In this document: one piece after another, positions 1 through 47,287 of the stretch | Position numbering within the stretch: the stretch's first letter is position 1 | Layout of the letters: each line of letters begins with the position of its first letter | Source of the DNA: Marsupella aquatica | Taxonomy: Eukaryota > Plantae > Marchantiophyta | Length of the DNA: 64,000 nucleotides | Assembly (NCBI GenBank): GCA_973895155.1 | Contig: OZ316899.1 | Coordinates: forward strand, 13,519,934 to 13,583,933 | Direction of reading: 5' to 3' | Translations under genes and position numbers: made by a program | The notes under the pieces: model-generated | Databases searched by the model: none | What the model saw: the letters and a program-made list of their open reading frames with translations, nothing else | Told to the model about the DNA's origin: nothing

Positions 1-3000
1 GAAACACGCCAACCCGCGCCGATACGAGATCGAACGCGAATACGAGAGAGCCATCCGCCTAGCAGGACGACACCACTACGTCCTTAACTTTGACTACCCG
101 TCTCAGAGCGAGCTTTACCGACCAGCTGAGGTATCTGGGTACTTCTTCAACGGAGACAAATATATCGGGTTCTGGGAAGCATTGCTTCGGCTTCCGGACG
201 AGGTCTTCAATATCCCGGGTACAATCGACCTGCAGCGACATCACTTCGACCACATCCCTGCCCAGGTTCGGGCTGTCATTAACGGCGAGTCCAGTACCAA
301 CCGTTCGACAAGGGCGTCCGCACTCGCTTTGGAGAACTTCTACCAGCACCTGCAGAGCTTCATGGGAACTCGGCCATCAACCAACATGACCAACTCAGCC
401 GGACCTGTACCCGTACCCGTGCCCATGCAACCCCAGCCTCAACTTCAGCTTCAGCCTCAACCGTAGCCTAGCCAAACCCCACCACCTATCACCCAGCCAG
501 CACAGGTACGCTCCGTCATCAACGCTGTGGATCTTAGCGATGACGACGAGGCTACCCCACCCTTGACCAGGCGGCCCAGAGGAACAAGCGCGCGGGGGGC
601 CGACACTATATCGTCCCCACCCCCTGCTCTGACCCCAGGAGCGGCCCCAGCAGACAACATAGTGACCGTGGCCGCCCCGGGCCCGTTACCAACCCCAGTG
701 GCACTCCCCAGGCCCGATCGGGAGGATGGGGAAGTATCACCTTCCCCGAGTCAGTCACGGGGAAAGAAGAGGAAGGAATCCGCCACTGCATCCGGGTTAC
801 CGTTGGCCACGGTAGCCGTAGCCAAGGTGACGATGCATCGCATGGGGGAAAACGTTCATAGCAACATCCTCCATCCCAAGCATGCGGTGTACCTGAAGAC
901 TCAGGGATTTGAGCACCTCACCTCTCTCCCCTGGAACACTTGCAGGTACTACGGGGAGGACATGACAGAATTCGTCAAGAATTATGACGACGTACGTCAA
1001 TAGACTCGGCTACGGGGAAGGAATATATCCCTCACAGAAGAACGGCTCAAGATGATCTTCGGGTTACCCGAAGGTGACCATCGAGTCGAATCACGGGCTC
1101 CCGGGGGCAAGGGGGCCAAGTACCAATCTTCAAGTTTTCCCTCAGAGGGATCAGTAGACAACGGGTTCGTGATGAGGACCTGCCTCATGCCCGAGATAGC
1201 TGAGCGGCTGGAGTTCCAGAGGTACGCTCTCCACATGATGGAACCCCGGGGGGAGATCTCCGCCGCCCAGGTTATCCAGGTCGAGAACTATCGACCTAGG
1301 AAATGGGCGTCGTACTTTGCTAAGAAATTCCATGAAGAGATGGAGCGGCGAAGGAAGACGCTGTACATTGGTGGGAAGGCGTATTTCGCTAGCCATATTG
1401 AAATCATTCTTGAGTGGTACGCCCGGTTTGATCGACGAACCCTTCCCCGCATCAACGTTACAAAGCTGGTCCCAGCTAGGTGGGTTTTTCCGGCATTGGA
1501 GAGACCCGAGGCCCGAAGTCCAGTGGACACGCCAGCTTCACCCACCCCACCTCCACAAATAGCTATAATCGTAACCGAGGAGGCACCGGAGGGGTCGGTC
1601 GTCGCAACCGTTGATGCGACCCAACTAGCCGGGCTAAGTACAGAAGTTGGTACGGCAGAGGTCTTACCCGAACCCGGGTCTCCCAAGGACCCGCCGGTGG
1701 CAATTCCGGAGAACCGGACATCGCTGCAGGAGGACACTCCAGCCCCTTCCAACGTTATGTCCCCAGGGCTGGACGTCACTGCCCCGGCCCCTGCGCGTGT
1801 TGATGTCTGCCCGTGCCCAAATCCGGACAGGCACAACTTGGACCACCCGGAACTCTTCGTACAGGGTACATTTCTGAACGGGCTTCTGGGAGATTTCTCT
1901 CATCAAATTGCCCGGGATACCGGGGAGTTCATGGCCCGGAAGGTAGCCTGTTTCTTCAATCAGGAGTTGGTTGCCGCCGTAAAGGCAGGTCGGGCCCAGT
2001 CGGAGGCCCTTCAGAGGATAGAGCGGTACCGGGTGGAGTCCGTGTACCTAAAGAACGAAGTGGCGGCTCAAGAGGCTGAGCTTCTGCAACTACGACCCAA
2101 GGTTGCAGCCGCCGATGAGTTGTTAGCAAAGGCGTACGCTCTTACCGCCCTAGCCGAACAGGCCAAAGCTGGGAACGAGGCCGAGATTACACGACTCCGG
2201 AACCAGATTGACAGTTTGAAGAAACAAGCTGTCACCTGGCAGAAAGACCTGGAGGAGGCCGAGGAGCGAGCCCAGCGGGATGCGACAGAGATAGCCACGC
2301 TGCAGGCCGAGATGGCGCGGCTCCAAACCGAGGTCGAGAAGCAGGACCAGCTGGCGAGTAAACTGACGAACGACGCCCAGCAGCTGGAGGAGGCATGTCA
2401 GGAGGCAACAGAGGAGACGGACGCGGCGAGGCGAGAGAACAAATCTCTGCTGGACCAGGTCCAGCTCCTCAAAGCGGACAATGACAGGCTTCGAAGGCAG
2501 CGGGATGGCCGTTCCCATTCGGGCGGCTCTGGCAAGCGTGCCAGGCATTAGCGGCAGAGTAGGAATAGATTAGGATTAGGATTGGCTTAGTCAAGCTCTT
2601 GGGACAGGCACCTGCCTTAGGTACAGCAGCGCTGCCCTGCTGTCCAGCCTGCGTAGATTAGGATCTTCTAATAAGACACAGCCGTTTTCCGGCCTGACTG
2701 TCAGCTTAGTTAGGACCTTAGTCAGCGAATCTTCGGCGAGAGGACACCCCGTTCCTCGGCTCTTAGTATTTAGTGCACCCCTCGGTAGAGGCAAGGGGGG
2801 GGGTTTTTAGTTTCAGAGTCGAACATCCGCGGGACATGCGGGGAGTCCCGACCTCTGGGAATGACAGAGTACCAAGGGGAGGGGGTAGGACTAAGCTCGC
2901 CGGGCGAGTGCGGAGCCGGGCTCCGTTGTAGTGTGCACCCTCGGCCTTGAACCTGTGCATTCCAGGGCTGTCGTGTCAACTAAGTGTACGCATATGTTCC

Positions 3001-3451
3001 CTTTGTAGTAAAATCCTTTCCCATCATTTTCCTTCGTGTAAATCGAGATTGTATGCATGTGTGCGCATATGTGTGTGGGCTTCTCGTATATGGGTGGCAG
3101 CGCCAGGCCGAACGCACTACCCGAGACGTGCACAGGGTGCAGCCTGCGGGTAAGTGGTTGCGAGCACGGGTTGAGGACCTGTATCATCGAATCCGGATCG
3201 AAGGCGGACAGCACGAAGGCTTAGAAGCCCTTAAGCCGGGGTCGATCCTGCTATCGACTAAGGTACGTTCCGGCGGCGGAACACAAACCATACCTAGGAG
3301 GTGTCTGTATTTAGCAGTATGCGCACTTAGCGCTAGTTTACGAGAATAAGGTGCATTACGTGCTTCCCTTCCTGCCCGAACCCTCAGATTTACGAGGGAT
3401 GTGCCCGTCTAAGCTGAAGTTTGAGTTAAGGCCGAAGCCTACGACGTGACA
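1..3451 (+). mobile_element. 5' LTR of Ty3/Gypsy family A (giant LTR, starts upstream of the window)
   Basis: About 99% identical to 9103-12559 (roughly 30 substitutions and one 6-bp indel by eye). Ends ...CGTGACA exactly where identity stops. Followed by a PBS and gag. Confidence 0.92.
2..2551 (+). pseudogene. LTR-encoded ORF of family A, copy 1 (5' end outside the window, two in-frame stops)
   Basis: ORFs 182-466, 527-1003 and 1052-2551 share one frame. The TAG stops at 464 and 1001 are CAG in copy 2. Confidence 0.85.
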
Positions 3452-3463
3452 TAGCCTTTGTTT

Positions 3464-3481
3464 TGGCGCTAGATGGAGGGG
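3464..3481 (+). promoter_or_regulatory. Primer binding site, tRNA-Asn-like (TGGCGCTAGATGGAGGGG)
   Basis: TGG-initiated 18-mer located 12 nt after the LTR end. Near-complementary to the plant tRNA-Asn 3' end (...CCCUCCUUCUAGCG-CCA, recalled from memory) with one mismatch. Confidence 0.75.
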
Positions 3482-3691
3482 GCACTCTACATATCGTAGA
3501 GGGGAGACATGTGCGTATTCACCTAGGCAGGATACATCAGGACGTAGTACTAACCATTGCATTTATATGAGTAAATGCCCGTCACTCGTTCTCAAGCAGC
3601 TTACTTGAGGAGATTGACCAGCGAACGAGAAAGTGCAACCACAACAAGCTCCGACTCGTCGGGCTCGGAGGACTCGCAATCGTCCTGACGT

Positions 3692-6600
3692 ATGAACATA
3701 CCCCCGGGATCTTCGGGGTCCGGTTTGACCGGCCCTGCTGTGGTTCCACCACCACCACCACCACCACCACCACCACCTATGGCAGCCGCTCCACCGGTGG
3801 CCCGCGCTGCTCAGGCGCCTCCACAAATATCGCAACGATCGCGATTTCATTATCGACCTTTCAAAGGGCGTCATGGGGATGATCCGGATGAATGGTTGGA
3901 TGAGTTTGAAGCCACTGCTAAAGCTAATGGGGAAGACGCCATTAAGCTAACCGTCCTCCCGGGAGTGATGCGGGGAGAAGCTCGTCCATGGTACAACTCG
4001 TTGCCACCCGGGACTACATGGGCACAATTCCAAGCTACATTGCTGCAGGAGTTTCGTGCCATTGGATCAGAACAGCGTTCTCTATTAAAGATTGGCCAGC
4101 TTCGCATGGGAAAAAAAGAGTCCCTGCGGAAATTCATTAAGAAGTTTCAGAAACTTGCGGCCAAGATCCGGCCCAGGCCAGGAGACGCGCTCCAGCTTAC
4201 ATGGTTCCTTCATGGTTTGCCCACGAATATGCAATTCTGGGTACGCCAGAATAATCCAATTTCAATGCAGGCGGCCATAGCATGCGCCGAAACTTACCGG
4301 GAGTCCACCTATAACTCCCGGCGGAGCCAGCGAGCACGCCGCAGGAAGGGTAAGTACGAAACCTTCAGTGACAGTGACTCCGAATCGGACGACGAGAGGA
4401 AGAAGAAACGCAAGAAGAAGAAGAAACATCGTTCGACCTCGTCCAGCTCCGAGACGAAATCCAGTTCGGATTCAGCTTCAAGCATCGGATCCTCTACCTC
4501 CAGTTCATCAGGAAGTGACTTGGAGAGCGAAAGCCGGAGCAAAAAGAAGAAGAGACAAGTGAAGAAGGAGGGGAAGATTAAACCCCGGGCGCGAAGAACG
4601 ATACCAGATCCAAAGGCTGCCGAAGCAGACAAGCTGAACGAAATCACGGATCGACTCAAAGCACTGTCAGTACATCTTGCAGAAAAGCCGGTGGAGAAGA
4701 AGAAGCCATATGAGATTCGAACCCATGCGTGGTGTTCAAAGTGCTTCCAATCCGGCCATGTGGTGCAGGAATGCCCAAGGTGGAAGAACCGAGTTCACCA
4801 AGTAGAGCTGGATGATGTTGACAACCCGGGCCCCGAATTGGAGTCCACGGAGTATTTCTTTGAGGACCCTCCTGATTCCGTGTACCAGATTTCAACGGTA
4901 GGTCCGCGTAATTTAGCGGGTAGAACTGCGTACCCCTACCCAAGTAATGGCCGGAGTTTCCAGGTTATCAGTAACCCGAGCATCCCTCCTAAGCCAGGGA
5001 TTTGGCGGTCCCCGGTTTGTTACAACTGTGAAAAGCCAGGACACTTTGCGAGGGAATGCACCGAACCAAGACGTCAGGGAGATGGCCGAGGCACCCCACT
5101 ATGTCAAGTTTGCAAAACGGAGGCTCATTCCACGGCCAACTGCCCGTTGGTAATCGCTGCTCGAACGAGTGCGGCTAGACCGGCCCAGGCTGGACCAGTC
5201 ACGAGCGATGCAGTCGTCCAAATGATTGTTGTAGAATGGCAAGATGACAACACCGAGTGGGTGAATCTGGTGGACGTGGCGGAACACCCTAATCCATTGG
5301 ATGAGGCCGAGTGCTACCGAGTGTCGACAAGGGCCGAACGGAAGGAAGAAAAGACGGAGGAGAAACGGAGGAAAAAGCAAGATACTACTCCGGTGCAGCC
5401 AGCGATAAATATACCCCCGGAAAAGGACGATGACTACCGAAGGGACGACCCGAAGCTGTTTTTCCCCCGCATCGAAGAATTGGTAAAGAAACAGCTGGAG
5501 GCTTACGAAGCTCGGGAATACCAGAAGGCAATCGATAAGGACATCAAAGCAGCCGAGACAGCCCGGCGTCAGGAGCAAGAAAAGCAAGATAAACAAGAGG
5601 AAGCCAAGCAGCAGCCAACGAAAGAAACAAAGGAGGACTATGATATTAAGGAGGACGTGAAGAGTTGCCCGGTTACAGCGATGGTGGGGCAACTGCTGCA
5701 GAACAACCCACAGTACAGACGACAACTGAGGGAGTTGCTCATGGGTCGCCGAAGGAGGAGACTACCCCGAGTTGGGAGTGCGGACTGCAACATGATATGC
5801 GAGGACCTTGGAGCGTCGGACATCTCGATCGAAATTAATAACTGTACCATCAAGATGGTTCTTGTAGACGGAGGAGCGGGAGTCAACATCATGACTGAAG
5901 AAACGTCAGTCAAGTTAGGATACCTCACGTATCAACCCACGGCCCGAGCTATCAGATTAGCAAACGGGGCAAGGGTCCTCCCATTAGGCACGCTCACACG
6001 AGTGCTCACTCTGGTGGGAGGGGTAGAGTTCTATCTCAACTTCTTAGTCATGAGGCCGGTTCGTCCCTCCTCTTATCCGGTTCTTTTGGGCAGGCCGTGG
6101 TTGTACGATGGCCGCGTAGTCACGGATTGGGGAAAGAAGGAGCTACGGTTCGGGGAACCCACCGTACGGGTATCCTGGGCAATGGACGATTATCAGGGAG
6201 AAACCCCACAAGGACCCGAGGAATATGATTCGGAGACCTCGGAGGAAGAGGAACTCAATATGATCGAACTCATCTCGTCCCTATCCGAGGAAGATGTCTT
6301 CGGAGTTGAAGCAACCCGAGAAACACATCTCCTAAATTACCCGAGGGCTGCCATTGAGTCCACCCCAAGTACATCTACTGTCGGGGATGAGGAAACGCAC
6401 GAACAACTCGTCGAGACGGAGGACACGGCTCCAGCTAAGCAGGGAGCCGAGGCTACTCCTTCCATTTCAGAGCCTCGTAACCATGAACCAGCCCAACAAC
6501 CGCCTGAGGCCGAAAACTCAAGACCGAGACATAAAAAGCGAGTCTCATGGGATCCGTCCATTCCGCAATTGGAGGAAGTAAACCCCATCCCGAGACCAAT

Positions 6601-7849
6601 CCCGGTCCCACCCATGTACGGAGGGGTTCGGTTAGCTGAGCTTGACGCGAGCCTGGACCCAAGTCTGCGAAACCAGGTTGAAGTCATCAGGAAGGAGCAC
6701 TACCGGAAGTACACTATTGGGATGGACAAATCTTTTAACCTGGGCCACGCTCTGACGGGGAAGGCTGAAAAATCCATCCAAGCTTTGCTCAAGGAATATG
6801 AAGATGTGTTTGCATGGAGTCATCATGATTTAACAGGCGTCTCCCCCGAGTTGGGAGAACACACAATCGATCTGAACCTAGGAGCCCATGCGGTACGACA
6901 GCGACAATGTCGCATGAATCCGAGGTACTCCATCTTAGTGAAGGAGGAAATTGATCGTCTCCTCGCCGCCGATATCATTTACCCGGTAATGGCCAGCGAC
7001 TGGGTCTCTCCCATTGTCATTGTACCAAAGAAGGGAGGTACGGATGGAAAACCTAAGATTTGTATCTGTCAGGACACCGCGCAGGCTGATAATCAGAATA
7101 TCAAGGATAAACTGACTCAGACGCAGGGAGAGTTGGCCGATACGATCAAAGAGAGGGAGAAGTGGAAGCGAGAGCTGAGGAATACAGAGGAGGCCCACAT
7201 AATAGCCAACAGCCGGGCCATGGCGGAGACCCAAAGAAAGGAATGGGCGTTGAAGAGGGAGCTTGAGAAAATTCGCGGAGCCCTTGAGCAGAAGGAGGCC
7301 GAGTTAGGAAAATCCTATCAAGGGATTATGGCGCTGCAGCAGGAGCTTGCGTCCCTGACGGCCAGCTTCAAGGCCGACCTAAGGGAGAAGGACGAGATGC
7401 TCGATCAGACTTACGCCAAGATGAACCAGATGGAGTCTGTCATCATTGCAGAGCTCGACAAGGAGCTAAGAGCAACCCGGGAGGAGAGGACTACCTTGAA
7501 AAAAGAACGGGAGGAAGCCCAGAAGGAACTAGAGGAGGCGCGCAAGGACCTGGATGAGACCCAGGAGGAGTTGGAGGAAATCACGAGGAAGATGGAGAAC
7601 CTCCAGCGGCGGGCCGACAACCAAACGGAGCGACTGAAGAAACAAGCCGCAGTATTTAAGTGCTTGTCTTCATCAGGCCCAACTCCAATTGGGGCAACCA
7701 AGTTACCAGGAGTGGTACTGGAAGAAGAAAAAGCCGCGCCACCTGCACCAGTGCCGGAAGTAAGTGGGAAGGGGAAGGGACCAGCTGCCGAACCAGAAAA
7801 GAAGAAGAAGCAGAAACCTTCAGGGTCAAGGAGTAATCCGACTCCATAA
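3692..7849 (+). CDS. Ty3/Gypsy Gag-protease-RT N-terminus (3692-7075) fused in frame to the coiled-coil half of the family B LTR ORF
   Basis: Contains a Gag capsid (DPDEWLDEFE...ARPWY), three CCHC knuckles, protease VDGGAGVNIM and the RT start (VKEEIDRLL..WVSPIVIVPKK..CQD). After GGAC at 7072-7075 the sequence matches 41922 onward. Confidence 0.9.
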   Translation: MNIPPGSSGSGLTGPAVVPPPPPPPPPPPMAAAPPVARAAQAPPQISQRSRFHYRPFKGRHGDDPDEWLDEFEATAKANGEDAIKLTVLPGVMRGEARPWYNSLPPGTTWAQFQATLLQEFRAIGSEQRSLLKIGQLRMGKKESLRKFIKKFQKLAAKIRPRPGDALQLTWFLHGLPTNMQFWVRQNNPISMQAAIACAETYRESTYNSRRSQRARRRKGKYETFSDSDSESDDERKKKRKKKKKHRSTSSSSETKSSSDSASSIGSSTSSSSGSDLESESRSKKKKRQVKKEGKIKPRARRTIPDPKAAEADKLNEITDRLKALSVHLAEKPVEKKKPYEIRTHAWCSKCFQSGHVVQECPRWKNRVHQVELDDVDNPGPELESTEYFFEDPPDSVYQISTVGPRNLAGRTAYPYPSNGRSFQVISNPSIPPKPGIWRSPVCYNCEKPGHFARECTEPRRQGDGRGTPLCQVCKTEAHSTANCPLVIAARTSAARPAQAGPVTSDAVVQMIVVEWQDDNTEWVNLVDVAEHPNPLDEAECYRVSTRAERKEEKTEEKRRKKQDTTPVQPAINIPPEKDDDYRRDDPKLFFPRIEELVKKQLEAYEAREYQKAIDKDIKAAETARRQEQEKQDKQEEAKQQPTKETKEDYDIKEDVKSCPVTAMVGQLLQNNPQYRRQLRELLMGRRRRRLPRVGSADCNMICEDLGASDISIEINNCTIKMVLVDGGAGVNIMTEETSVKLGYLTYQPTARAIRLANGARVLPLGTLTRVLTLVGGVEFYLNFLVMRPVRPSSYPVLLGRPWLYDGRVVTDWGKKELRFGEPTVRVSWAMDDYQGETPQGPEEYDSETSEEEELNMIELISSLSEEDVFGVEATRETHLLNYPRAAIESTPSTSTVGDEETHEQLVETEDTAPAKQGAEATPSISEPRNHEPAQQPPEAENSRPRHKKRVSWDPSIPQLEEVNPIPRPIPVPPMYGGVRLAELDASLDPSLRNQVEVIRKEHYRKYTIGMDKSFNLGHALTGKAEKSIQALLKEYEDVFAWSHHDLTGVSPELGEHTIDLNLGAHAVRQRQCRMNPRYSILVKEEIDRLLAADIIYPVMASDWVSPIVIVPKKGGTDGKPKICICQDTAQADNQNIKDKLTQTQGELADTIKEREKWKRELRNTEEAHIIANSRAMAETQRKEWALKRELEKIRGALEQKEAELGKSYQGIMALQQELASLTASFKADLREKDEMLDQTYAKMNQMESVIIAELDKELRATREERTTLKKEREEAQKELEEARKDLDETQEELEEITRKMENLQRRADNQTERLKKQAAVFKCLSSSGPTPIGATKLPGVVLEEEKAAPPAPVPEVSGKGKGPAAEPEKKKKQKPSGSRSNPTP

Positions 7850-8911
7850 GCCGTGGTGACCAAGGAGGTAGACCCAGCACCATCCTCCGGCATGAATACG
7901 GCAATAGATCCCGCTATCATCACAGGTGGGGGTGGTGCGGCCCAAGCCGAACTACTCAGTAATGAGGCCGGTATCCCAGATCCGCCTCTGGAGCAGGCCG
8001 GGGAGACCATAGCCGAGGCTGAGGCCATAGCCGAGAATGATTCCCGAGCCGATGCCGACGCCGATGGTGGACCCAGTCAGGCCGATGGAGAGTTGACTCA
8101 GTCAAGGGCAGGTAATCTGTCAGAAAACGAACCTACGGCAGTGGCTGAGGAGGAAGCGTTGGGGGCGTCCATTGAGGATCCACCACCGGTGTCGTGACGG
8201 TGCAAGGGCGCCGTTCCTTTTAGGAAGGGCGGACGTGGAGGTAGGAGGCGTGAGTGGGCAGGGCGGGCGCTGATCTCCAAGTTTAGGATTAGGATCAGGA
8301 CCAGGAGCGGCCCTCACACTTAGCTTAGTGGGATTGCGGTTCCACTGGTAGGAGCAACACTTGTGCTCCTGCCTTGCTGTACATAGGTAGATCCGGGCAA
8401 GTAGATTACTGTTAGGTAGATTAGGCTTACGCTGCAAAGAATTAGGCGGATCCACTACCAGGATAAGTACCTGGGCAGCGGGGAGCTCAGGGCCTCTTCT
8501 TTAGCAAGTTTTTAGTTTGCACCAGCCGGGCTGGGATCAAGTAGTAAGAGAAGTGTGACGCCGCCGGTACGGCGGTTAATGAGTGATTCAGTCTAACTGC
8601 GCTCGGCACGCGCGTTAGGTGGGTCTTAGGCCGCTATTATTAGCATAACGACAGTATTTAGGTAATCATTAGGGGTAGGACATCATTAGGCAATAAGGGG
8701 GACTTCAGGTTCGGGCTGGCGGCGGGTCGCTATTCGCACACCCGGGTTACGAGCGTGGAGGGGCCCCTCCCTCGGGTCCGTATAACGAACTTAAGGAAGC
8801 GGCCACTGACGCACGCTGACTCAGACCGGCGGAGTGGCCGGTACACCACAAGCGTGAGCGGTTCAACCTATGGGCGTCGAGGAGACGTCGGGGATCGACA
8901 AGCCCTCAAAG

Positions 8912-8920
8912 TATAAAAGG
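8912..8920 (+). promoter_or_regulatory. Candidate LTR TATA box (TATAAAAGG)
   Basis: Canonical motif ~360 bp inside LTR A and ~105 bp before the ATG at 9020, followed by a CT-rich leader. Confidence 0.65.
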
Positions 8921-9019
8921 GGAGCCAACCCTTTGTAGTGCACCAGTCCATCAGTCCGTGCGCCAGCTTCGACCCCAGCTCTCTCGTTCTCTCTAGGTCG
9001 CCACTACTATCTCCTCTGA

Positions 9020-11659
9020 ATGTCGCACACGATCCTCTCCAGCTCGGCCATTCGATTCTGGACGCAGTTCCTATCTATCGGAAGGCACTTGGCCGATTCA
9101 TTGAAACACGCCAACCCGCGCCGATACGAGATCGAACGCGAATACGAGAGAGCCATCCGCCTAGCAGGACGACACCACTACGTCCTTAACTTTGACTACC
9201 CGTCTCAGAGCGAGCTTTACCGACCAGCTGAGGTATCTGGGTACTTCTTCAACGGAGACAAATATATCGAGTTCTGGGAAGCATTGCTTCGGCTTCCGGA
9301 CGAGGTCTTCAATATCCTGGGTACAATCGACCTGCAGCGACATCACTTCGACCACATCCCTGCCCAGGTTCGGGCTGTCATTAACGGCGAGTCCAGTACC
9401 AACCGTTCGACAAGGGCGTCCGCACTCGCTTCGGAGAACTTCTACCAGCACCTGCAGAGCTTCATGGGAACTCGGCCATCAACCAACATGACCAACTCAG
9501 CCGGACCTGTACCCGTACCCGTACCCGTGCCCATGCAACCCCAGCCTCAACTTCAGCTTCAGCCTCAGCCGCAGCCTAGCCAAACCCCACCACCTATCAC
9601 CCAGCCAGCACAGGTACGCTCCGTCATCAACGCTGTGGATCTTAGCGATGACGACGAGGCTACCCCACCCTTGACCAGGCGGCCCAGAGGAACAAGCGCG
9701 CGGGGGGCCGACACTATATCGTCCCCACCCCCTGCTCTGACCCCAGGAGCGGTCCCAGCAGACAACATAGTGACCGTGGCCGCCCCGGGCCCGTTACCAA
9801 CCGCAGTGGCACTCCCCAGGCCCGATCGGGAGGATGGGGAAGTATCACCTTCCCCGAGTCAGTCACGGGGAAAGAAGAGGAAGGAATCCGCCACTGCATC
9901 CGGGTTACCGTTGGCCACGGTAGCCGTAGCCAAGGTGACGATGCATCGCATGGGGGAAAACGTTCATAGCAACATCCTCCATCCCAAGCATGCGGTGTAC
10001 CTGAAGACTCAGGGATTTGAGCACCTCACCTCTCTCCCCTGGAACACTTGCAGGTACTACGGGGAGGACATGACAGAATTCGTCAAGAATTATGACGACG
10101 TACGTCAACAGACTCGGCTACGGGGAAGGAATATATCCCTCACAGAAGAACGGCTCAAGATGATCTTCGGGTTACCCGAAGGTGACCATCGAGTCGAATC
10201 ACGGGCTCCCGGGGGCAAGGGGGCCAAGTACCAATCTTCAAGTTTTCCCTCAGAGGGATCAGTAGACAACGGGTTCGTGATGAGGACCTGCCTCATGCCC
10301 GAGATAGCTGAGCGGCTGGAGTTCCAGAGGTACGCTCTCCACATGATGGAACCCCGGGGGGAGATCTCCGCCGCCCAGGTTATCCAGGTCGAGAACTATC
10401 GACCTAGGAAATGGGCGTCGTACTTCGCTAAGAAATTCCATGAAGAGATGGAGCGGCGAAGGAAGACGCTGTACATTGGCGGGAAGGCGTATTTCGCTAG
10501 CCATATCGAAATCATTCTTGAGTGGTACGCCCGGTTTGATCGACGAACCCTTCCCCGCATCAACGTTACAAAGCTGGTCCCAGCTAGGTGGGTTTTTCCG
10601 GCATTGGAGAGACCCGAGGCCCGAAGTCCAGTGGACACGCCAGCTTCACCCACCCCACCTCCACAAATAGCTATAATCGTAACCGAGGAGGCGCCGGAGG
10701 GGTCGGTCGTCGCAACCGTTGATGCGACCCAACTAGCCGGGCTAAGTACAGAAGTTGGTACAACAGAGGTCTTACCCGAACCCGGGTCTCCCAAGGACCC
10801 GCCGGTGGCAATTCCGGAGAACCGGACATCGCTGCAGGAGGACACTCCAGCCCCTTCCAACGTTATGTCCCCAGGGCTGGACGTCACTGCCCCGGCCCCT
10901 GCGCGTGTTGATGTCTGCCCGTGCCCAAATCCGGACAGGCACAACTTGGACCACCCGGAACTCTTCGTACAGGGTACGTTTCTGAACCGGCTTCTGGGAG
11001 ATTTCTCTCATCAAATTGCCCGGGATACCGGGGAGTTCATGGCCCGGAAGGTAGCCTATTTCTTCAATCAGGAGTTGGTTGCCGCCGTAAAGGCAGGTCG
11101 GGCCCAGTCGGAGGCCCTTCAGAGGATAGAGCGGTACCGGGTGGAGTCCGTGTACCTAAAGAACGAAGTGGCGGCTCAAGAGGCTGAGCTTCTGCAACTA
11201 CGACCCAAGGTTGCAGCCGCCGATGAGTTGTTAGCAAAGGCGTACGCTCTTACCGCCCTAGCCGAACAGGCCAAAGCTGGGAACGAGGCCGAGATTACAC
11301 GACTCCGGAACCAGATTGACAGTTTGAAGAAACAAGCTGTCACCTGGCAGAAAGACCTGGAGGAGGCCGAGGAGCGAGCCCAGCGGGACGCGACGGAGAT
11401 AGCCACGCTGCAGGCCGAGATGGCGCGGCTCCAAACCGAGGCCGAGAAGTAGGACCAGCTGGCGAGTAAACTGACGAGCGACGCCCAGCAGCTGGAGGAG
11501 GCATGTCAGGAGGCAGCAGAGGAGACGGACGCGGCGAGGCGAGAGAACGAATCTCTGCTGGACCAGGTCCAGCTCCTCAAAGCGGACAATGACAGGCTTC
11601 GAAGGCAGCGGGATGGCCGTTCCCATTCGGGCGGCTCTGGCAAGCGTGCCAGGCATTAG
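9020..11659 (+). CDS. LTR-encoded protein of family A (879 aa by read-through of one premature TAG at 11450; 810 aa as is)
   Basis: Long ORF wholly inside the solo LTR. Has a GFEHLTSLPW..EFV..TRLRGRNISLT..IFGLP domain and a C-terminal coiled coil. The stop codon is CAG in copy 1. Confidence 0.85.
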
Positions 11660-13122
11660 CGGCGGAGTAGGAATAGATTAGGATTAGGATTGGCTTAGTC
11701 AGGCTCTTGGGACAGGCACCTTCCTTAGGTACAGCAGCGCTGCCCTGCTGTCCAGCCTGCGTAGATTAGGATCTTCTAATAAGACACAGCCGTTTTCCGG
11801 CCTGACTGTCAGCTTAGTTAGGACCTTAGTCAGCGAATCTTCGGCGAGAGGACACCCCGTTCCTCGGCTCTTAGTATTTAGTGCACCCCTCGGTAGAGGC
11901 AAGGGGGGGGGTTTTTAGTTTCAGAGTCGAACATCCGCGGGACATGCGGGGAGTCCCGACCTCTGGGAATGACAGAGTACCAAGGGGAGGGGGTAGGACT
12001 AAGCTCGCCGGGCAAGTGCGGAGCCGGGCTCCGTTGTAGTGTGCACCCTCGGCCTTGAACCTGTGCATTCCAGGGCTGTCGTGTCAACTAAGTGTACGCA
12101 TATGTTCCCTTTGTAGTAAAATCCTTTCCCATCATTTTCCTTCGTGTAAATCGAGATTGTATGCATGTGTGCGCATATGTGTGTGGGCTTCTCGTATATG
12201 GGTGGCAGCGCCAGGCCGAACGCACTACCCGAGACGTGCACAGGGTGCAGCCTACGGGTAAGTGGTTGCGAGCACGGGTTGAGGACCTGTATCATCGAAT
12301 CCGGATCGAAGGCGGACAGCAGGAAGGCTTAGAAGCCCTTAAGCCGGGGTCGATCCTGCTATCGACTAAGGTACGTTCCGGCGGCGGAACACAAACCATA
12401 CCTAGGAGGTGTCCGTATTTAGCAGTATGCGCACTTAGCGCTAGTTTACGAGAATAAGGTGCATTACGTGCTTCCCTTCCTGCCCGAACCCTCAGATTTA
12501 CGAGGGATGTGCCCGTCTAAGCTGAAGTCTGAGTTAAGGCCGAAGCCTACGACGTGACAAGAAGCTCTCGGTTAGTCATACAGTGACCCTTGTGTATATT
12601 CATGTTTCCTCATGCCTAAGAGCTGAATAGAGTTGGCCTCACGGCTTAGTTCGCAGAGCTTGTGTATGAGATGTACTGTTTGTATGGCAAGTGCATGGTA
12701 TGACTCAGTCAGAATGAGTCATTTTGCTATTTGTGTATCGCATTAACTTGTGTGAAGAGTGCCCACATCAACCAGAAGGAAGGAAAGTAAGCAGGGGGGT
12801 GAGAGTTGGATGTGTCGAGCTGAGAGAGGTCTTAGCGGCTTAACCAGGCCTATTGGGGATCATTCCGGCGGCGGAATCCAAACATACCTAACAAGACGGA
12901 GGGGAAGACGAGGGAAGGCCTAGATTAGGCCGGCTACGTATCTCATGACCCGATGAAGGATCTGTCCAGTATATGTGTGTAAAATGTTAATAGTAGTAGT
13001 AGAAGGTTAGCAGCGTCCCATGCCGCTAAGCCGCGGAAACGGCCTCGCCAAGCGCGAAACCTGCGGGAATCGGCTTGAGCTGGGGGGTTTCTTGGGTTTA
13101 GGGAGCCATGGGACGCACCACA

Positions 13123-15253
13123 CAAATGCTAGGTGATATGGGGTAGTTGAGTTAAAGGATGATGGTCTATAACTTAATAGTGCAGCAGAGTGGAGGATGG
13201 CATGACCCCAAGCAGCTGTTGGTAGGTTCGTCTGCATTAGTAGGGGTTGGGCAATCATCTATAATCATTTAATCAGGGATTTGGCTATTCCATTTTGAAA
13301 ATGGACGTGAGGTATGGGGTACTGGACATCAATGCTTGTGGCCTAGCAAAACTCTTTGAACATTTTGGAGGTAAATTCTCTTGCATCATCCACTCTGAGT
13401 GTTTTGATTTGGTTTTCAAGGAATTGTGCTCTCAGTTTTAGTATGTGTGCTAGGAGTCTAGAAAATACCAAGTTTCTTGTAGATAGTAAGGGTATCTGAC
13501 TCCATTTTGTTGATGCGACTATGAGTGCCAGGAAGAATCGGAATGGGCTGCTAGGGGGGTCAATCGGTCCGCATACATCAGCGTGTATGCGCTCCAGGAA
13601 GCGTGGGAGCGTTCAGTTTTAGGTGGTGAGGGCCGGATTATTAGTTTGCCCTGTGAGCAAGCTAAACAAGGGGCTTTCATGGACGTAGGATGGACCATTT
13701 CCGGTATACCATGGGTTTCTCTGATAAGCTTCTGGAACATTGTCATTCTAGGGTGACCTAGTCTCCTGTGCCAGATCTTGGTGAGTGTGCCTTGGGGTGC
13801 TTCAATGTGGAAACTGTGAATTTTAGTGGTGTAACAACCAGGGGGTGATGCACTCAGGATCTCTCTGATCTTGGTGTTTGGTGGTTCCCCCAAGGTAATG
13901 TACAAGACCTCCCGTCCATGTTGGGTGCCCGTCTTAATATGTAGCTTGTTAGCACAGATATCCCCAAAGCTTAGTAAGTTTTTGGTTGCCTTTGGGGCGT
14001 ATATTGCAGACTCCACCTGAATTGTTGTTCCGCGGGGTAGGGTGACCAATGCTGGTCCAAATCCCTCTTCCAATTGATGCTAGCCCATAATAGTTGTAAG
14101 TTTTCTCTATGATGGTGTAATTTGCTTAAAGTATTCGTTATGCTTGAAAATGGAATGCAATGTACCACTGTTGACTATGCAGTGGGAAAAAATTTCTTTT
14201 ATACTAGAGTTGGTTCTTGATATGGCCATGTTTATAGATGGTATGAGTTCTGTAGATTCTAAGAAAGTCCCGTACGTCTTGGGTTCATTTTGTGCAGTAC
14301 TCTTCTTATATAGTTGTACTAGGTGTGCAGGGGCACGACAGAATTTTTGAATGTGGCCTTTAGTGCCACAACAAAAACATATAGGGGGGTTTTCGTATTT
14401 ATCTCTTTGAGCACTTTGCTGTTGATTTGTCCTCCCTCGGGGTTGAGAATTGTCTTGTTGCCCGTTGTTTCTGAAGTTGCCGCCATTGTTTTGGTATCTT
14501 CCCTTGGATCTGCCTCTGAAAGAGTTGCTTCTGCCCATGCGTCCTTTGAAGGAGCTTCCTCGACCTTTGTTTGTGTTTCTCCCCTTGAAACTGCCTTGGC
14601 TGCGGTAAGATGATCCCTCTCCCCTTTGGGTTGTGACATAATGAGATTCTATGTTTGTGACTGGGGGGAGGGTTTTGGGGGGTCACTTTTGGGAGTTCTA
14701 TAATAACAATAGCTGATGCTTCTCAGCCAGGAGCATATGGGCAATCAATTTGGAATATTTAGTGAATCACATATTGCGGTATTGAGTAGAGAGGATAAGA
14801 TGGGTAGAGTGAAGGGTGGATAGCGTTTTCCTGATCTGTTCTTCATCATTTACGGGGTGGCCACATATGGCCAGTTGTGATACTATCCGGAATAGTTCAC
14901 AGTTGTAGTCCGCAATCATCTTATGGTCTTGGACTCTAAGATTGATCCAATCGTGTCTGGCTGCTGGTAGGTATATGGTGCAAGTGTGGTCAAAGCGTGA
15001 GTGAAGTTCTTCCCAGAGGACCCTCGGATTGTATTCATTCATATAATGTTGCTTCAAGGAGTCACTCAAATGGTGTCTAATTAGTATCAATGCCTGTGCC
15101 TTTTGCTAAAGAGTTAGGCCATTCACTTATTATTGTATCCTGTAGATTCTTTGAAGTTAAATGAGCTTTAGCATCAAGCCACCAGGACAAGTAGTTGGCG
15201 CCATCGATGCTAAGTGGTTGAAATAAGAGTTTCTCCATAGAATTCGTTGACAT
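13123..15253 (-). pseudogene. Bianca gag-PR-INT fragment with stops and frameshifts
   Basis: ORF fragments 14767-15090, 14107-14538, 13519-14073 and 13007-13258 are colinear with the 61370-63498 copy. Confidence 0.88.
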
Positions 15254-15742: not shown

Positions 15743-18700
15743 TCTTTGACTTTATAGGGTCCAAGCCACTTGGTATGAAGCTTCCCCTGAAACAACATGT
15801 AAAAGTTATCAAAAAGTAGAACCAAATCACCTGGTAAAATCTTCACTTCTTTGAGCTTAGCATCATATCTCTTTGCACGGCCTACTTGTTGTTTCTCTGT
15901 CTCAATCAAAGCATAATTGCGATCTTCTTCTAGCTTCTCCAAATTCTGTAACCTGATAGTCTGACTTGACTCCTCATCCAGCCAAGTGGTATCAGATATC
16001 CGGTAGGTGGGTACCTCAAATTCCACCGGGACAATACTATGGAGTCCATAACCAAGTAAAAAGGAGTTTGCTTAGTTGTGATTTTCTCAGCTGTCCGATA
16101 TGCCCATAATGCGGAATGTAATTTAAAATCCCATTCTGACTTGTGTCCAACCACCGACTTTGGTAAGATGCATTCCATCAACCCGTTAGTTTTCCCAGTG
16201 AGTCCATTAGCTTTAGGATTGTAAGGGGTGGTTTTTCTATGTCAGATCAGATATGTATCAGTGAGACTTTGGATACTATTGTTGAGAAAATGAAGACCTC
16301 TGTCACTGACCAACTCCAAAGGGCAACCAAATCTTACCAAGATATTTTCAAAGATGAATTTAGTTGCTGTCTGAGCATCATTTTTCCTGGTTGCTCTAGC
16401 TTCCACCCACTTTGTTGCATAATCTGTCGCAAGAATGATGTATCGATTTTTGGTTCTTGTCGAGGGAGGTTGAATGGGGCTCACAAAATCTATGCCCCAC
16501 TTCTCAAAAGGTGCTAAAGGCATAATAGGAGTTAAAGGCCAATGAGAAGTGGAAGTAGGTTTACCCATTCTCTGACAGGGATCACAAGTTTGGATGTAAG
16601 ACTAAGTAGTCCTATACATAGTCGGCCTCCAGTATCCAGCATTCCGGATTTTCTTCACAGTGTTCATTGATGCATAATGTCCACCAACCTCTTCTGTATG
16701 CATGGCCTGAATGACAGTTTGATCTCCTTCTTCTCGAGACATTTCTTCAACTCTTGGTCTGGAGTCTGCTTGTACAACACACCTTCTTGTAAGGTATAAG
16801 GCCCAACCTTATACATGAAGATTGCTTGTTGCTCCTTGTTCAAATTCTCTCGTAAAACACCCAAAGTCAGAAGTTTGATGATATTTGCATACCAAGAATC
16901 CTCCTCATGAACACATAAAATGTCTTCATCCGGAAATCGATCATTCAATGGAGATTCATTTGCCTCACCGTCTAATCTTGAGAGGAAATCAAAATTCTCA
17001 TGATGTTTTCCAGGTCAAACTTCCACAGTAAAGTTGAATTCTTGTAGTAAAAGAACCCATCTAGCAATTCTTCCCAAAATGTCAGTTTGATTGACTAAAT
17101 ATTTCAGCGAAGAATGGTCCGTGTGAAATATCGTATGATATCCCAAAAGATAGTGTCTGAACTTCTTACAAACAAACACCACTGCCAATGCTTCTCTTTC
17201 CGTGACAGTATAGTTCTTCTCAGCAGGGTTCATTTGTCTACTAGCATAGAAGATAGGATGGTCCTTACCGGCTTTGTCCTTCTAACTGAGGACTGCCCCA
17301 ACACAAAATGCTGAAGCGTCAATGTACACATGAAAGGTGGTATCAGCACAGGGGCAAACACCAACTTATCCTTCAAATTCCGGAAAGCTGTTTGCCGAGC
17401 TTCAATAAAGGCATATTCAACATCCTTCTCAACAACTGAGTCAGGGGCATTGCAATCTCAACATATTTACGAATGAATCTTTGGTAGCATCCCACATGAT
17501 TTAAAAATGCTCTCAACTCTCTTAAATTAGCAGGGGGTTGAAGATTTTGAATAATCTTCACTTTTTTAGCATCTACCTCTATCCCTTTTTGAGAGATCAC
17601 ATGTCCCAACAACACTCCTTTTTGCATCCCATGAAACATTTTTGTGGATGTAAGCAAAGGCGAGCTTCTATGCATTTCTGGAAAGTGAATCTCAGCTTTT
17701 CCAGATGATCCTCTTCCATACTGAAGACACATAAATCATCAATACAAATTTCCAAAAATCTATGAAGGTATTCTTGAAAAATAATCATCATGATCCTTTG
17801 AAAGGTTCTTGGGGCATTGTAGAGTCCAAATGGCATTACTGAGAAAGCATATGTGTCGCAGTCCGTAGTGAATGTGGTCTTGTCACGGTCTTCCTCCCTA
17901 ACTGAAATTTGATTGTATCCAAAGTAACCATCAAGGAAGTTGAAAAGGTCATGTCCCGCAACTATATCTAAAACAATGTCAATAAAAGGTAAGGGGTAAT
18001 GGTCCTTCCTGGTGGCCACATTCAACTTCCAAAAATCTTGACAAACTTGGATTTTAACTTTTCCGTCCGGCCTTGGTTTCTTGGGTACAATGACTATGGG
18101 AGAAACCCACTCACAGCTTAGGACTGGAAAAATGAATCCGGCTTGGGTTAGCTTATCAATCTCATCCTTCACCATTATGGAGTATTTTGGATTAAGGCAA
18201 TATTGCCTTTGCCTAATTGGAATTGTTCCTTCAACCAAGTCTATCCGGTGTTGTCCCAGATAAGAGGGTATGGCTTTGATATCAGTATGGCTCCATGCAA
18301 AGACATCCCTATACTACTTCAGCAATTCCACATACTTAGTTCTCAAGTCACCCTGAATATGATTGCTGATATTCAAGAATTTTCCAGGTTCAATCTCCAC
18401 CTTTTGGCAAGCTCTTGGGTCTACTATCCCTTCAGTAAAACCCATAGGTTCAATAGTCAATCCTTTTGCTTCTCCTGGTAAGAACTCCGCGTTGACACCT
18501 TCTTGGTCACTCTTGACTTCCTCCCCATCCAAGGTCCTAGATTTGACTCCAGTACTTAGGTAGGAAGGGTTCTGGCGTCATCCAAGCTATAAGCCTGCTT
18601 CAAAGTCCTTTTCCGGATCAGAGTATAAAACCGAAGCTTTTTGGTTGATCGAAGTGTGATTGATCCGGATTTGCTGATGTTTTTGGATTCCTACCAAGTT

Positions 18701-21135
18701 CCGGAATTTCAGTTATGGCGGTTATTTTCAGAATTTCTCCCATCTCCACGGGAGCATCAAATTCAAAAATATAAAGAAATCACACGTCATCTTCTTTTCG
18801 TCGCTTGGTCTTGTTTCTGACTGAATCAGAGTCTGTCCATGTGATCGTGGAATTTGAAGTATAGCCTTTGTCCATCTCTGTCTCTCCCTGGTGAGGATCT
18901 ACGTCCCAGCTTACAATCACTCTAGGGGTACCAAAAGTTAATTCTTTCATAGTCCAATTAACTTTCACCTCGACACCATACAGCCAGGGCCGTCCTAACA
19001 GGATTGGAAAATTGGAAGGAGAGGAGGGTCGAATAATTACATACACCAAAGGAAATGTAATGCCTCCAATTATTGTATCCACATTCTGCAAAATTCCAAC
19101 TGGAGCAACTCGAGTTTGGTCTGCCATTCTCAGGAACCGATCAGTGGGCTCAAATTTTTCAAACCCAAAACTGTATGCAATAGATTTCATCATGAGGTTG
19201 ACACCTGATCCTCCATCAATAGGAACTCCCCGAATGGAACACCCAACAATTTGAATGGTCAATATAGGTTGTCCTCTATCCAAAGCCTCAAGGTGGAAGC
19301 AATTATGCACATCTATAGTTGGCAATTTGGCTTTTCTCCTTCTTCTACCACCTACTAATCTGATCTCCCTTAAAAATTGAGGGTTAATTCTAATCAATTC
19401 TCCTATTGTGATGTTGGCTTTGACATTGTCAATGTCTGCCACAATGTCATACGGTTGGGATTTCCCCAATTTCAATTTCCCTTCCTCAATTGAAGGCACC
19501 ACTGGGGTAATTGTCTTATTGATTTCAAGTTTCACTTGTAATTTGTGAGCCAAATCTCTTTGACTTCTGCAAAGATGTCCGGTAAGAAGTATTTAAGATC
19601 GTTACGATCATATGCTCCATCATTCATGTGGTCCACCCCTTCTCTTTCAGTTGCTACAGGTTGCTTGGCCTTCTTCAATTCCTTCTCAAGGGGCTTAACC
19701 AACTTTTTATCCTTAGATTGAGTAACTGCAAACACGTTTAGTACTCTGTCTCTCTCTCTCTAACTCTTTTGTTGGGTTGGCCAAGTTCCTCTTCCTTGAC
19801 TAAGTGAGGTACCTCAATGTCAAACACAAGGCCTTGTGGTCCTCCATTATTCATATTTGGAATTCTGGTGGTAGCAGTTTTAATTTCCGGATTCATATCT
19901 AGATCTGCACTTCGAAATAGTTTTCCCCGTTCTTTCTCCTTTTTCTTCACTATGGCAACTTGGGGTGTAGAATACTTCTTTGGGTTCCGATAAGTTGGAG
20001 AGGTGATTTCCACAATTTGGACATGGTCCACCTGTCCTTCTGGTAGCCACATTTCCTTCTCATAACACACAAGCTGAACATTAGATTCAGGTTTTTGCGT
20101 ATCTTTGACTGGCTCTTGTACATACCTTACCAACATTTTTGGCTTTGGTGGCACAGGACATTCCATCAGTAAATGACCTTCCTTACCACAATTTCCACAC
20201 AGAGAGGTCATTCCTTCAGGTCTCTTTGGCCACGAACATTGTGGTGAAAAATGGGCTTGATCCCCACAATTCCAACATACACCTCCTGGCAAAGTTCCTC
20301 TTGGTGGGTATCCTCCTGGTGGTGCCATAGGTGGCTTATAGACAGACCTATTAGGTCCCCCTTGGGGTCTTATTGGTGGTCTAGGGAAATATTGTACAAG
20401 GGCTTGAGGTTGAACTTGATCCACTGAATCTTCATACCTCTGGAACTCTGGATCACATTCTATCTCACCTTCATAGTCTTCACCTGCAATGTAATTCACT
20501 TGCTTTGAGCTAGGGCATTCATTAGGATAATGACCCATCTTCTTACAAACAACACACCACACATTGTACCTCGGTTGTTCTAAGGGTCTCTATGGTGGGT
20601 TATTCATTGCCAGGTTTACAACCAATCCTTTCATCTGTTTGGCAAGACCTTCCATTATGTCTACCAATTTGCCTTCACTTTTTGCAGTTTTTGTAGGTTT
20701 AACAGTGGACACTTTTTTGGGTTTCACCTCCTCCTCATCAGTGCTGTCTATATCATCTCCACTATCATCGCTCTCACTGGATGTATCGTCTTCAGAAGAG
20801 GAAGAATCAGCTTGTTTTTTTTTTTTTCTTAGACTTTTTCTTCTTTTTGCTTTCTTCTTCTGTAATCTCTTTTGCCAGCTGAGACCGTTGGGAGAGATTG
20901 GCATCCTTGCAATTAATTCCTTTCGCTCCTTCAAAGGAAAGTGATATTCTTCAAAATCCATAGTCTCCAATGCATGCACGTACTCTAGTTGGAAGGCTCT
21001 AGAAGCATTAAAGATTGTATATGGTTTGCTTCTTGTGTTTAATGAATGTTTTTTGTGCTCAGAATCTTCTGTAGTACCAACATATCCATTCAAATAATTA
21101 TGCTCCTTCCATTGTGTTGATTGCACCGCTTTCAT
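15743..21135 (-). pseudogene. Ty3/Gypsy family C gag-PR-RT-RH-INT (Athila-like non-chromovirus), degenerate and cut at the integrase C-terminus by Bianca
   Basis: Three CCHC knuckles, PR IDGGSGVNLM, RT (DHYPLPFID, FLDGYFGYNQI, ICIDD), RH (NYTVTEREALAVV, HTDH), INT (PFEKWGIDF, SDRG, ALWAYRT, WLGPY). There is no room for a second, archaeal-type RNase H between RH and INT. Confidence 0.92.
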
Positions 21136-47270: not shown

Positions 47271-47287
47271 AAAATGTACTAGTGGTC

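Follow-up and report, generated by a model that had tools for sequence, protein, structure and literature searches.

Can the LTR of a plant retrotransposon carry a protein-coding gene? The question is raised by a 4006-bp unit in the window (the whole 64,000-nt stretch of DNA analysed), for which the original prediction was that a giant Gypsy LTR, retained as a solo LTR, itself encodes a large protein. The family to which this unit belongs, family A, contributes the following features:

8554..12559, forward strand: family A unit, copy A2, TG...CA, 4006 bp, presumed solo LTR
8912..8918, forward strand: TATA box TATAAAA, the sole consensus TATA found in A2
9020..11659, forward strand: 879-codon frame with one stop, at 11450
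9920..10582, forward strand: conserved core of 221 aa, its fold predicted to be nearest that of the VANC21 DNA-binding region
11660..12559, forward strand: non-coding tail, 900 bp, including a 29-nt block (12375-12403)
1..3451, forward strand: family A copy A1, placed as a 5' LTR and truncated at the window edge
3464..3480, forward strand: PBS-like site TGGCGCTAGATGGAGGG, 12 nt past the CA end of A1
3689..7071, forward strand: family A gag, zinc knuckles, protease and RT start, breaking off where a family B fragment is joined on

A2 opens with TGTGAC, closes with GTGACA and is flanked by the target duplication AGAAG (8549-8553 and 12560-12564). Its insertion site is the 3' tail of B3, a copy of family B, and two other copies of this host repeat have a single AGAAG, that is, an empty site; with both ends checked, the predicted 4006-bp unit and its 5-bp duplication are upheld. 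At the 5' boundary, 13 contigs of run X1 (100-350 nt) exit the unit at 8554 into mixed flanks, with an agreement of 0.43. An empty-site join present in four of four runs was dropped as evidence for A2, because other family B copies yield the same join. The second, approximately 99% identical copy that the prediction had placed 12 nt ahead of a PBS and gag is A1: it is 98.9% identical to A2 over 3457 columns, and the solo copy and the PBS-side copy share the same terminal base. The adjoining PBS-like site is probably of tRNA-Arg type; no tRNA gene was found within the window. The element of A1 breaks off at about 7071, where a fragment of another family adjoins it, and the window thus contains no family A 3' LTR.

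The large sense frame predicted downstream of a TATA box was also located: the box is 108 nt ahead of the ATG, with a CT-rich leader in between. As the frame has only the one stop, 810 of its codons are stop-free, whereas in 500 shuffles of the A2 unit the longest stop-free run had a mean of 168 and a maximum of 335. The stops of A1 lie elsewhere, at 464 and 1001, and the two copies therefore differ in their premature stops, as had been claimed. From its N-terminus, the A protein comprises an N-terminal domain (residues ~1-150), a proline-rich linker, the basic patch KKRK, the core domain, a further linker, a coiled-coil-like region and a basic tail; a homolog of 906 aa (P0152) aligns to its N-terminal, core and C-terminal parts. 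No transmembrane-like segment was detected (the top 19-residue mean hydropathy is 1.13, on a simple scale only), and the protein thus lacks the transmembrane helix expected of an env-like product. Within the tail, the block at 12375-12403 is hairpin-like (TTCCG-N4-CGGAA), and 26 of its 29 columns are the same in the family B tail.

Families A, B and C/D occur in the one window with one plan and homologous genes, the latter two being represented as follows:

39292..44299, forward strand: family B unit B1, TG...CA, target duplication CTTCG
30428..35124, reverse strand: family B copy B2, ~84% identical to B1, 5' end cut beside a LINE
7072..13123, forward strand: 3' portion of a further family B copy, B3, split by A2
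47285..48671, reverse strand: family C/D unit, 5' part, with ATG at 48152 and core domain, broken off at a CACTA element
21303..23124, reverse strand: family C/D unit, 3' part, frame remainder to 22337, then a 1034-nt tail ending ACCACA
15743..21295, reverse strand: C/D PBS-like site TGGCGCCGTTG, 7 nt past the CA, and decayed gag-PR-RT-RH-INT, cut by a copia LTR

B1 measures 4665 bp once a 343-bp MITE-like insert (43309-43651) is subtracted; its frame (39407-43041) is disrupted by a stop at 39779 and shifts near 41845, and its core is 29% identical to that of A over 185 aa. The C/D unit is about 3.2 kb net, with the CACTA element excluded: its TG start at 48671 is the exact break of a match between two chromovirus LTRs, a TATA lies near 48552, and protein P0014 aligns to both halves of the gene. 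The unit is followed directly by a PBS-like site and gag in A1, after a gap of 12 nt, and in C/D, after 7 nt, but this was not found for B; the C/D site shares 11 nt with the PBS-like site of loci L023 and L024. Every copy of the gene within the window is broken, and the internal regions of A and C/D are both truncated there; neither an element with both of its LTRs nor a junction between PPT and LTR was found.

Independent families on the same plan, units without internal terminal repeats and the mixed flanks at 8554 strengthen the claim that the unit is an LTR, and A2 is most likely the giant LTR (end-repeat) of a retroelement. It is improbable that the units are instead non-autonomous TG...CA elements, or rearranged tandem products, placed before gag by insertion or recombination: no shorter terminal direct repeats were found within A2 and B1, in two unrelated families the unit gives way at once to a PBS-like site followed by gag, the last base is the same in the solo and PBS-side copies, and there is a clean 5-bp target duplication at both A and B. 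Such an origin would nevertheless accord with the fact that a two-LTR element was not seen, and with the existence of relatives that have short LTRs and the gene internal; locus L007 (pol, gene, 575 nt, PBS and gag, as a collapsed circle) is compatible either way. A Pfam match of L007 to Transcript_VP30 was judged to be due to chance.

These relatives also bear on how the gene came to lie where it does. It is found between pol and the 3' LTR in 5 of 80 metagenome loci, and L014 and L032 each carry a pair of 540-bp LTRs with the gene internal, in that same interval. The arrangement that the original prediction had named as counting against it does, therefore, occur in related elements from other sources, but it was not seen in A, B or C/D. 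The short-LTR relatives suggest that the gene was captured into the LTR by a moved LTR boundary. The Gypsy order gag-PR-RT-RH-INT is present in C/D, whereas family A is legible only to the start of RT. In a quick RT tree without named references, the A and C sequences are sisters (SH-aLRT 92), the A row being only 44% filled, and they join the L014 and L007 groups, whereas loci whose PBS is Ogre- or Athila-like fall elsewhere. The C translation, cut at its 3' end, shows no evident extra archaeal-type RNase H domain in the interval from RH to INT. The accessory ORF lies upstream of the PBS, inside the TG...CA unit, and not in the internal position of the Athila, Ogre and Retand ORFs. We infer that A2 is a solo-LTR copy, that there would be two gene copies per element and that the family may belong to the Athila/Tat/Ogre group.

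The gene of family B is clearly under purifying selection: between B1 and B2, dN/dS is 0.11 for the core (95% CI 0.05-0.20, 221 codons) and 0.24 for the first 807 codons, against 1.19 and 1.43 in shifted-frame controls. The tails of B1 and B2 diverge by 0.03-0.08 as against a dS of 0.37-0.44, and are thus far more conserved than synonymous sites. For family A, dN/dS is 0.43 from 21 changes, with a CI (0.19-1.10) that includes 1; the listed variants comprise 14 synonymous and 15 non-synonymous changes (p 0.004 versus site counts, 0.08 versus a transition-only expectation). The dN/dS comparison across copies proposed with the prediction is favourable for the B core. That the frame is a passenger relic, open merely through the young age and GC-richness of its family, is very improbable, and for family B this is largely refuted. 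The stops in all window copies, and a ratio within A that is not significantly below 1, would fit a relic; set against it are the 810 codons compared with a longest shuffle frame of 335, the constraint on the B core, a domain common to 156 database proteins and the confident predicted folds of the cores.

The core domain is predicted to have a VANC-type DNA-binding fold. The model of the A core (pLDDT 93, pTM 0.89) matches the VANC21-DNA complex in Foldseek with probability 0.99 and TM 0.54, the E-value being only 0.013; in VIA it aligns to VANC21 with Z 8.3 and an rmsd of 4.1 over 208 residues, the next row among 48,161 chains having 2.3. For the D core, the corresponding values are Z 7.1, rmsd 4.0 and 176 residues, the next row having 2.4 (again 48,161 chains). 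The A and D cores are 14% identical, yet both models place VANC21 first of the 48,161 chains and as the sole match with Z of at least 5; these matches are at 10-11% identity, and Z values of 7-8 are middling on the tool's scale. The Foldseek check suggested for the ORF product thus returned VANC21 for the A core, whereas with the D model it was absent among the best 50 matches listed.

Sequence comparisons place the core among the 156 relatives noted above, from which P0046, a bacterial repeat protein, was removed as a false match. Transposase_32 gives a weak match in 1 of 57 relatives and in 6 of 102 (best E 1.6e-7); Athila ORF1, PMD and Transposase_28 are absent among the Pfam families listed for them. 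The window proteins gave no match to any of these four families in Pfam at the curated cut-off. A word-based protein search with the core returned 1929 candidates, none at E of 0.001 or below, and a profile search against the sequences of solved structures gave none for A3 and only weak coiled-coil rows for A7. Additionally, no convincing match was found in a viral structure library, no relatives were found in viral contigs in four scans, and a metagenome scan with the A core gave no match.

If the protein binds DNA, candidate sites are available in two families. ATCCGGA occurs 19 times in C/D versus 2.5 expected, and AAGCCG 18 times in B1 (3.8 expected) and 22 times in B2 (4.3 expected); each is absent from the other family's frame, they fall in several reading frames, and none of 500 synonymous shuffles reached the counts. 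Both motifs contain CG, are dispersed rather than tandem, are partly coding and were found after the fact. The scan recovered the CACTA subterminal repeat as a positive control, and found nothing enriched in the copia, LINE, chromovirus and CACTA-transposase sequences or in both gag-pol regions. Family A has no significantly enriched motif, and none was found in loci L007 and L014. In the non-coding parts of A, TTAGG and CGGCGG were rejected since 9 and 8 of 200 shuffles, respectively, reach their counts, TTAGG also being common across the window.

Our preferred reading, to which we give a probability of about one half, is that A2 represents a giant non-chromovirus Ty3/Gypsy solo LTR carrying a selected gene, whose product, with its predicted VANC21-type core, would likely be a family-specific anti-silencing factor. 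The plus-strand start site would have moved upstream of a 3' accessory gene and its promoter, making the gene part of U3 and leaving the 0.9-1.0 kb tail as the former LTR. Each LTR, solo LTRs included, would then transcribe the gene from its own TATA promoter; the protein, with its basic patches and coiled coil, would enter the nucleus, oligomerise and bind short, family-specific, CG-containing motifs across its own LTR, where methylation would fall. This would close a positive feedback loop, with an effect in trans on other copies. Of the roles originally envisaged (anti-silencing, targeting or scaffolding), the predicted match to VANC21 lends specific support to the first, but the direction of the effect is not fixed by the fold, as this is also reported for the silencing factor MAIN.

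The same giant LTR and gene could serve another nuclear purpose, the protein being an activator of LTR transcription, a MAIN-like repressor of copy number or a cDNA-end factor for nuclear import or integration. We consider this unlikely, albeit a rival of some weight: the fold is common to MAIN, described in accessible parts of two reports as acting in silencing (PMC13547354, PMC5418596), the core is remotely related to Transposase_32, itself related to Athila ORF1 according to part of PMC11728184, the passages of the literature available record no anti-silencing role for the Transposase_32 family, and family A is without an enriched motif. The mutually exclusive, family-specific CG motifs of B and C/D fit a VANC-like system better, however, and the only solved structure matched is that of VANC21 bound to DNA. 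A slightly less probable departure from the preferred reading concerns the architecture, in that the gene might lie in R or U5 rather than U3, with the 5' TATA driving the genomic RNA and the gene as first cistron; the LTR would then have grown by a downstream shift of its PBS end past an Ogre-like 5' gene. Such a layout would fit the TATA positions: units A, B and D each have a single consensus TATA, at nt 359, 95 and 120, respectively, ahead of the gene, and none was found in their tails. The 12-nt CA-to-PBS gap of A also exceeds the 4-7 nt of C, L007, L022 and L023. On the other hand, the layout would demand that minus-strand strong-stop DNA extend over 3-4.5 kb and that gag be the second cistron; moreover, in the relatives the gene lies downstream of pol rather than upstream of gag, and the tails are alike in length and, in B, conserved as described above.

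The closest parallel to the anti-silencing reading is VANC21 and the other VANCs of the VANDAL Mutator-like DNA transposons of Arabidopsis (PDB 9LNJ/9LNK). According to PMC5735166, VANC21 recognises short motifs particular to its family and brings about demethylation. The likeness lies in the predicted core fold (Z 8.3 and 7.1), in a transposon-encoded accessory protein with a coiled coil and in family-specific short motifs, here in two of the three families. The differences are that the gene described here is inside the LTR of a retrotransposon and its host is probably a non-seed plant, VANC having been described as specific to dicots (PMC5735166, PMC13547354), that identity is 10-11% and that the motifs here are dispersed, CG-containing and partly coding. 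As the gene is encoded in a Gypsy LTR and not in a VANDAL transposon, the protein would 'work like' a VANC rather than be one. The plant mobile domain proteins MAIN and MAIL1 are likewise reported to have the VANC fold, and Gypsy-encoded PMD-A clades are known in angiosperms (both from PMC5418596), but there is no PMD Pfam match here, and MAIN is a host gene acting in silencing.

The expectation that the extra ORFs of plant Athila/Tat/Ogre-type elements are normally internal is borne out by the literature in the portions available, which places Athila ORF1/Transposase_32, the Ogre PMD and the Retand Transposase_28 ORFs there and describes LTRs of up to ~5 kb without ORFs (PMC6317226, PMC7264820, PMC11963269, PMC11728184). 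These ORFs resemble the present gene in the remote Transposase_32 link (6 of 102) and as sense accessory genes with a core and a coiled coil, and the Athila plan recurs in L014 and L032; here, by contrast, the gene takes up half to three quarters of the LTR, and its product is without a transmembrane segment. LTR-borne genes are otherwise known mainly from retroviruses (MMTV sag, and the nef of HIV/SIV, which overlaps U3), and the LTRs of Cassandra TRIMs carry a 5S RNA unit. All of these lie in an LTR, are duplicated in each round and are kept in solo LTRs, but their products are unrelated to this 550-1200-codon protein gene, present in three families of plant retrotransposon. No plant precedent for an LTR-borne protein gene was found in a literature search.

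A broader proposal, advanced tentatively and at somewhat less than even odds, is that in a Gypsy clade of non-seed plants the LTR has taken in a VANC-like anti-silencing gene together with a promoter and binding motifs of its own, and that solo LTRs, usually where host clean-up ends, go on supplying the protein in trans. If so, each LTR would be a self-contained epigenetic switch, a sequence-specific anti-silencing system would be on record for the first time in an LTR retrotransposon, and the VANC/PMD/Athila-ORF1 fold would have been present in Gypsy elements well before the angiosperms. The three families, with their different candidate motifs, form a natural specificity series. Moreover, the extra ORFs of plant Gypsy elements, long without an explanation, gain from the fold match a function that can be tested, and the match also points to retrotransposons outside the flowering plants as the root of the VANC/MAIN fold. 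Annotation tools would overlook such units, through limits on LTR length, or miscall them as host genes. LTRs are regarded as non-coding, and solo-LTR formation as the genome's way to disarm retrotransposons; a protein gene in the LTR would make solo-LTR deletion a route for spreading the gene.

The window is composed of nested plant transposons. Within it, the 4006-bp TG...CA unit of Gypsy family A (A2) was found with both the ends and the flanks that the original prediction had described, and it is inserted in the tail of a family B copy, the empty site being present in other copies of that repeat. The units of the three families, A, B and C/D, are as follows:

1-3451: A1, a 98.9% copy of A2, with stops at different positions
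8554-12559: A2, 4006 bp; TGTGAC start, GTGACA end, AGAAG on both sides
8912: TATA box of A2, inside the unit
9020-11659: A2 gene, an 879-codon frame with a single stop at 11450
900 bp, 3' of the frame: A2 tail
39292-44299: B1, family B; bounded by TG...CA, with CTTCG duplicated at the target and a gene frame of about 1200 codons
48671 (-): TG at the 5' end of the C/D unit, exactly at the breakpoint of the match between two chromovirus LTRs
21303 (-): 3' end of the C/D unit; PBS-like site 7 nt on, then gag-PR-RT-RH-INT

The predicted sense ORF downstream of a TATA box is present, and it has 810 stop-free codons versus a maximum of 335 in 500 shuffles. The second copy, A1, shares its terminal base with A2. 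As anticipated, its stops differ from that of A2, and a PBS-like site (presumably of tRNA-Arg type) follows 12 nt after that end, with a gag-protease-RT frame beyond it. The A1 element is broken off at about 7071 and no family A 3' LTR was found within the window; nor were terminal direct repeats found inside the A2 unit. Contigs from each of four public runs cover 29-30 of the 30 A2 bins, and in one of these, X1, at least 13 contigs exit the unit at 8554 with mixed flanks, among the 24 listed of about 926 loose ends. Separately, the junction at about 7072 fuses the family A gag-protease-partial RT in frame with the coiled-coil part of a family B gene, giving a stop-free chimeric frame of 1386 codons (3689-7849, +), most likely a chance deletion product.

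Families B and C/D follow the same plan. The conserved core of the B1 protein is 29% identical to that of A over 185 residues (E 6e-20), and the repeat interrupted by A2 belongs to the same unit type as B1. The C/D unit is split by a CACTA element, both halves of its gene being matched by a single database protein, P0014. In all three, a single consensus TATA precedes the gene; the tails, 0.9-1.0 kb long, contain none. The unit lies directly before a PBS and gag in two families and stands alone with a target duplication in two, which is indirect but strong support for reading it as an LTR (probability about 0.9).

The family B tails (43042-44299 against 30428-31350) diverge by 0.03-0.08 between B1 and a second copy, B2 (30428-35124, -), versus 0.37-0.44 at synonymous sites of the gene, reflecting either strong cis constraint or recent 3'-end exchange by template switching. 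The A and B tails, otherwise unalignable, have one 29-nt block in common (12375-12403 in A2); it contains the inverted repeat TTCCG-N4-CGGAA and is a candidate RNA or DNA cis-element. B1 also carries a 343-bp MITE-like insert (43309-43651) with 29-nt terminal inverted repeats and 22-nt internal repeats.

The 24-kb CACTA element (23125-47284; terminal CACTAGTACATTTT, target duplication GAC, subterminal ATCGGA repeats, Transposase_21) divides the C/D LTR gene and contains B1, B2 and a LINE. The C/D element apparently interrupts the 3' LTR of a chromovirus with a chromodomain (48672-56200, -), whose other LTR also appears interrupted, and the family C/D integrase is cut by one LTR of a decayed copia pair (57354-63557 and 13127-15742, about 85% alike).

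The proposed dN/dS comparison shows constraint in family B. For B1 versus B2 the core has a ratio of 0.11 (CI 0.05-0.20), the first 807 codons 0.24 and the coiled coil 0.23; the C-terminal tail reaches 0.79, and shifted-frame controls 1.19 and 1.43. For A1 versus A2 the ratio is 0.43 with a CI of 0.19-1.10, spanning 1. Among the 40 of 447 family A variants listed, 29 fall within the gene's frame, 14 synonymous and 15 non-synonymous (p 0.004 versus site counts, 0.08 versus transitions only). Very probably, the unit encodes a selected protein.

No Pfam family was found for the window proteins and a word-based protein search with the core gave no match; a three-sequence profile matched 156 proteins, and one of the 150 listed was discarded as false. 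Two of ten homologs looked up are named, both from the liverwort Calypogeia fissa, and it is solely on these that homologs are placed in non-seed plants. The 906-aa P0152 matches the A protein across its N-terminal, core and C-terminal parts. The Logan contigs that carry full-length homologs (P0152, P0028 and P0153; 623-906 aa) measure 3.4-4.6 kb, close to the length of a single LTR or transcript, which is no more than a hint. Transposase_32, which the accessible text of PMC11728184 relates to Athila ORF1, is weakly matched by six of 102 members (best E 1.6e-7).

In the suggested Foldseek comparison, the only notable match for the A core (confidently predicted fold, pLDDT 93) is DNA-bound VANC21, the Arabidopsis anti-silencing protein of VANDAL transposons (probability 0.99, TM 0.54, E 0.013), and VIA likewise gives VANC21 (Z 8.3 over 208 residues at rmsd 4.1; the runner-up has 2.3). 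The D core, from the C/D unit, is 14% identical to the A core and was predicted from its own 57-row alignment (pLDDT 91); VANC21 again comes first (Z 7.1, rmsd 4.0, 176 residues; next 2.4), but is not in its Foldseek listing, and the two alignments have many rows in common, so that this repeat is not fully independent. Z-scores of 7-8 are middling, yet both matches cover the whole domain and have no near competitor; the predicted models make a VANC-type fold likely. The A protein has three basic patches, and no transmembrane-like segment was found in it.

VANC proteins bind short, family-specific motifs, according to the accessible text of PMC5735166. ATCCGGA occurs 19 times in C/D versus 2.5 expected (corrected p 3e-7), and AAGCCG 18 times in B1 versus 3.8 (2e-4) and 22 times in B2 versus 4.3 (2e-6). 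Within the coding parts, each is missing from the other family and its copies are spread over several frames; none of 500 synonymous shuffles reached the motif count, although these motifs had been picked from the very sequences tested. No enriched motif came from eight control regions (two copia, LINE, two chromovirus, CACTA transposase, two gag-pol), and the CACTA ends, as positive control, returned their own subterminal repeat. No significant motif was found in family A or in the metagenome loci L007 and L014.

On balance, we favour a sequence-specific regulator of its own family. The gene would be transcribed from each LTR, solo LTRs included, and the protein would enter the nucleus, oligomerize through its coiled coil and bind motifs of its own family; methylation would be lost locally, and the action may extend in trans. 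The VANC and Athila domains have themselves been modelled as coiled-coil pentamers (PMC13547354, accessible part). Anti-silencing in particular has roughly even odds. The strongest competing reading gives the protein some other task in the nucleus: the accessible parts of PMC13547354 and PMC5418596 place the VANC fold also in MAIN, a promoter of silencing. The protein is predicted to work as VANC does; it is not a VANC family member.

A metagenome RT scan, in which 80 of 95 loci were kept, bears on the origin of this arrangement. The core profile matches five of the 80, representing three distinct sequences. Short LTRs with an internal ORF, which the original prediction had set against an LTR-borne gene, are seen in these relatives: L014 and L032, both full-length but decayed, have an LTR of about 540 bp at each end and the gene between pol and the 3' LTR. 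In L007/L027, an intact homolog immediately follows pol. This element is an intact, circularly assembled Gypsy whose 987-codon frame (2467-5427 in L007) has a coiled coil and a core that is homologous (hhalign 93%, E 3e-7); next come a 575-nt stretch containing a TATA box, the CA, a PBS and gag. A quick RT tree makes the window's A and C sisters, grouped with the L014/L032 and L007/L027 groups. Most simply, the U3 boundary would have shifted upstream of a 3' accessory gene; possibly, the PBS end moved instead.

LTR-borne comparisons are MMTV sag, nef and Cassandra 5S. In plants, extra ORFs sit in the internal region, as far as the accessible parts of the sources describe (PMC7264820, PMC6317226, PMC12885004, PMC13547354, PMC5418596; also PMC5735166, PMC11963269, PMC11728184, PMC12844716, PMC1560396, PMC10223558). 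Among the openly accessible papers listed by the searches, none offered a precedent for a plant LTR that contains a gene or for VANC linked to retrotransposons; the supplements of PMC6317226, which list extra ORFs, may bear on the question. Overall, the observation is real and repeated in three families, with no printed precedent found in the literature covered; it represents a variant plan for Gypsy LTRs, with a specific predicted function that lends itself to testing.
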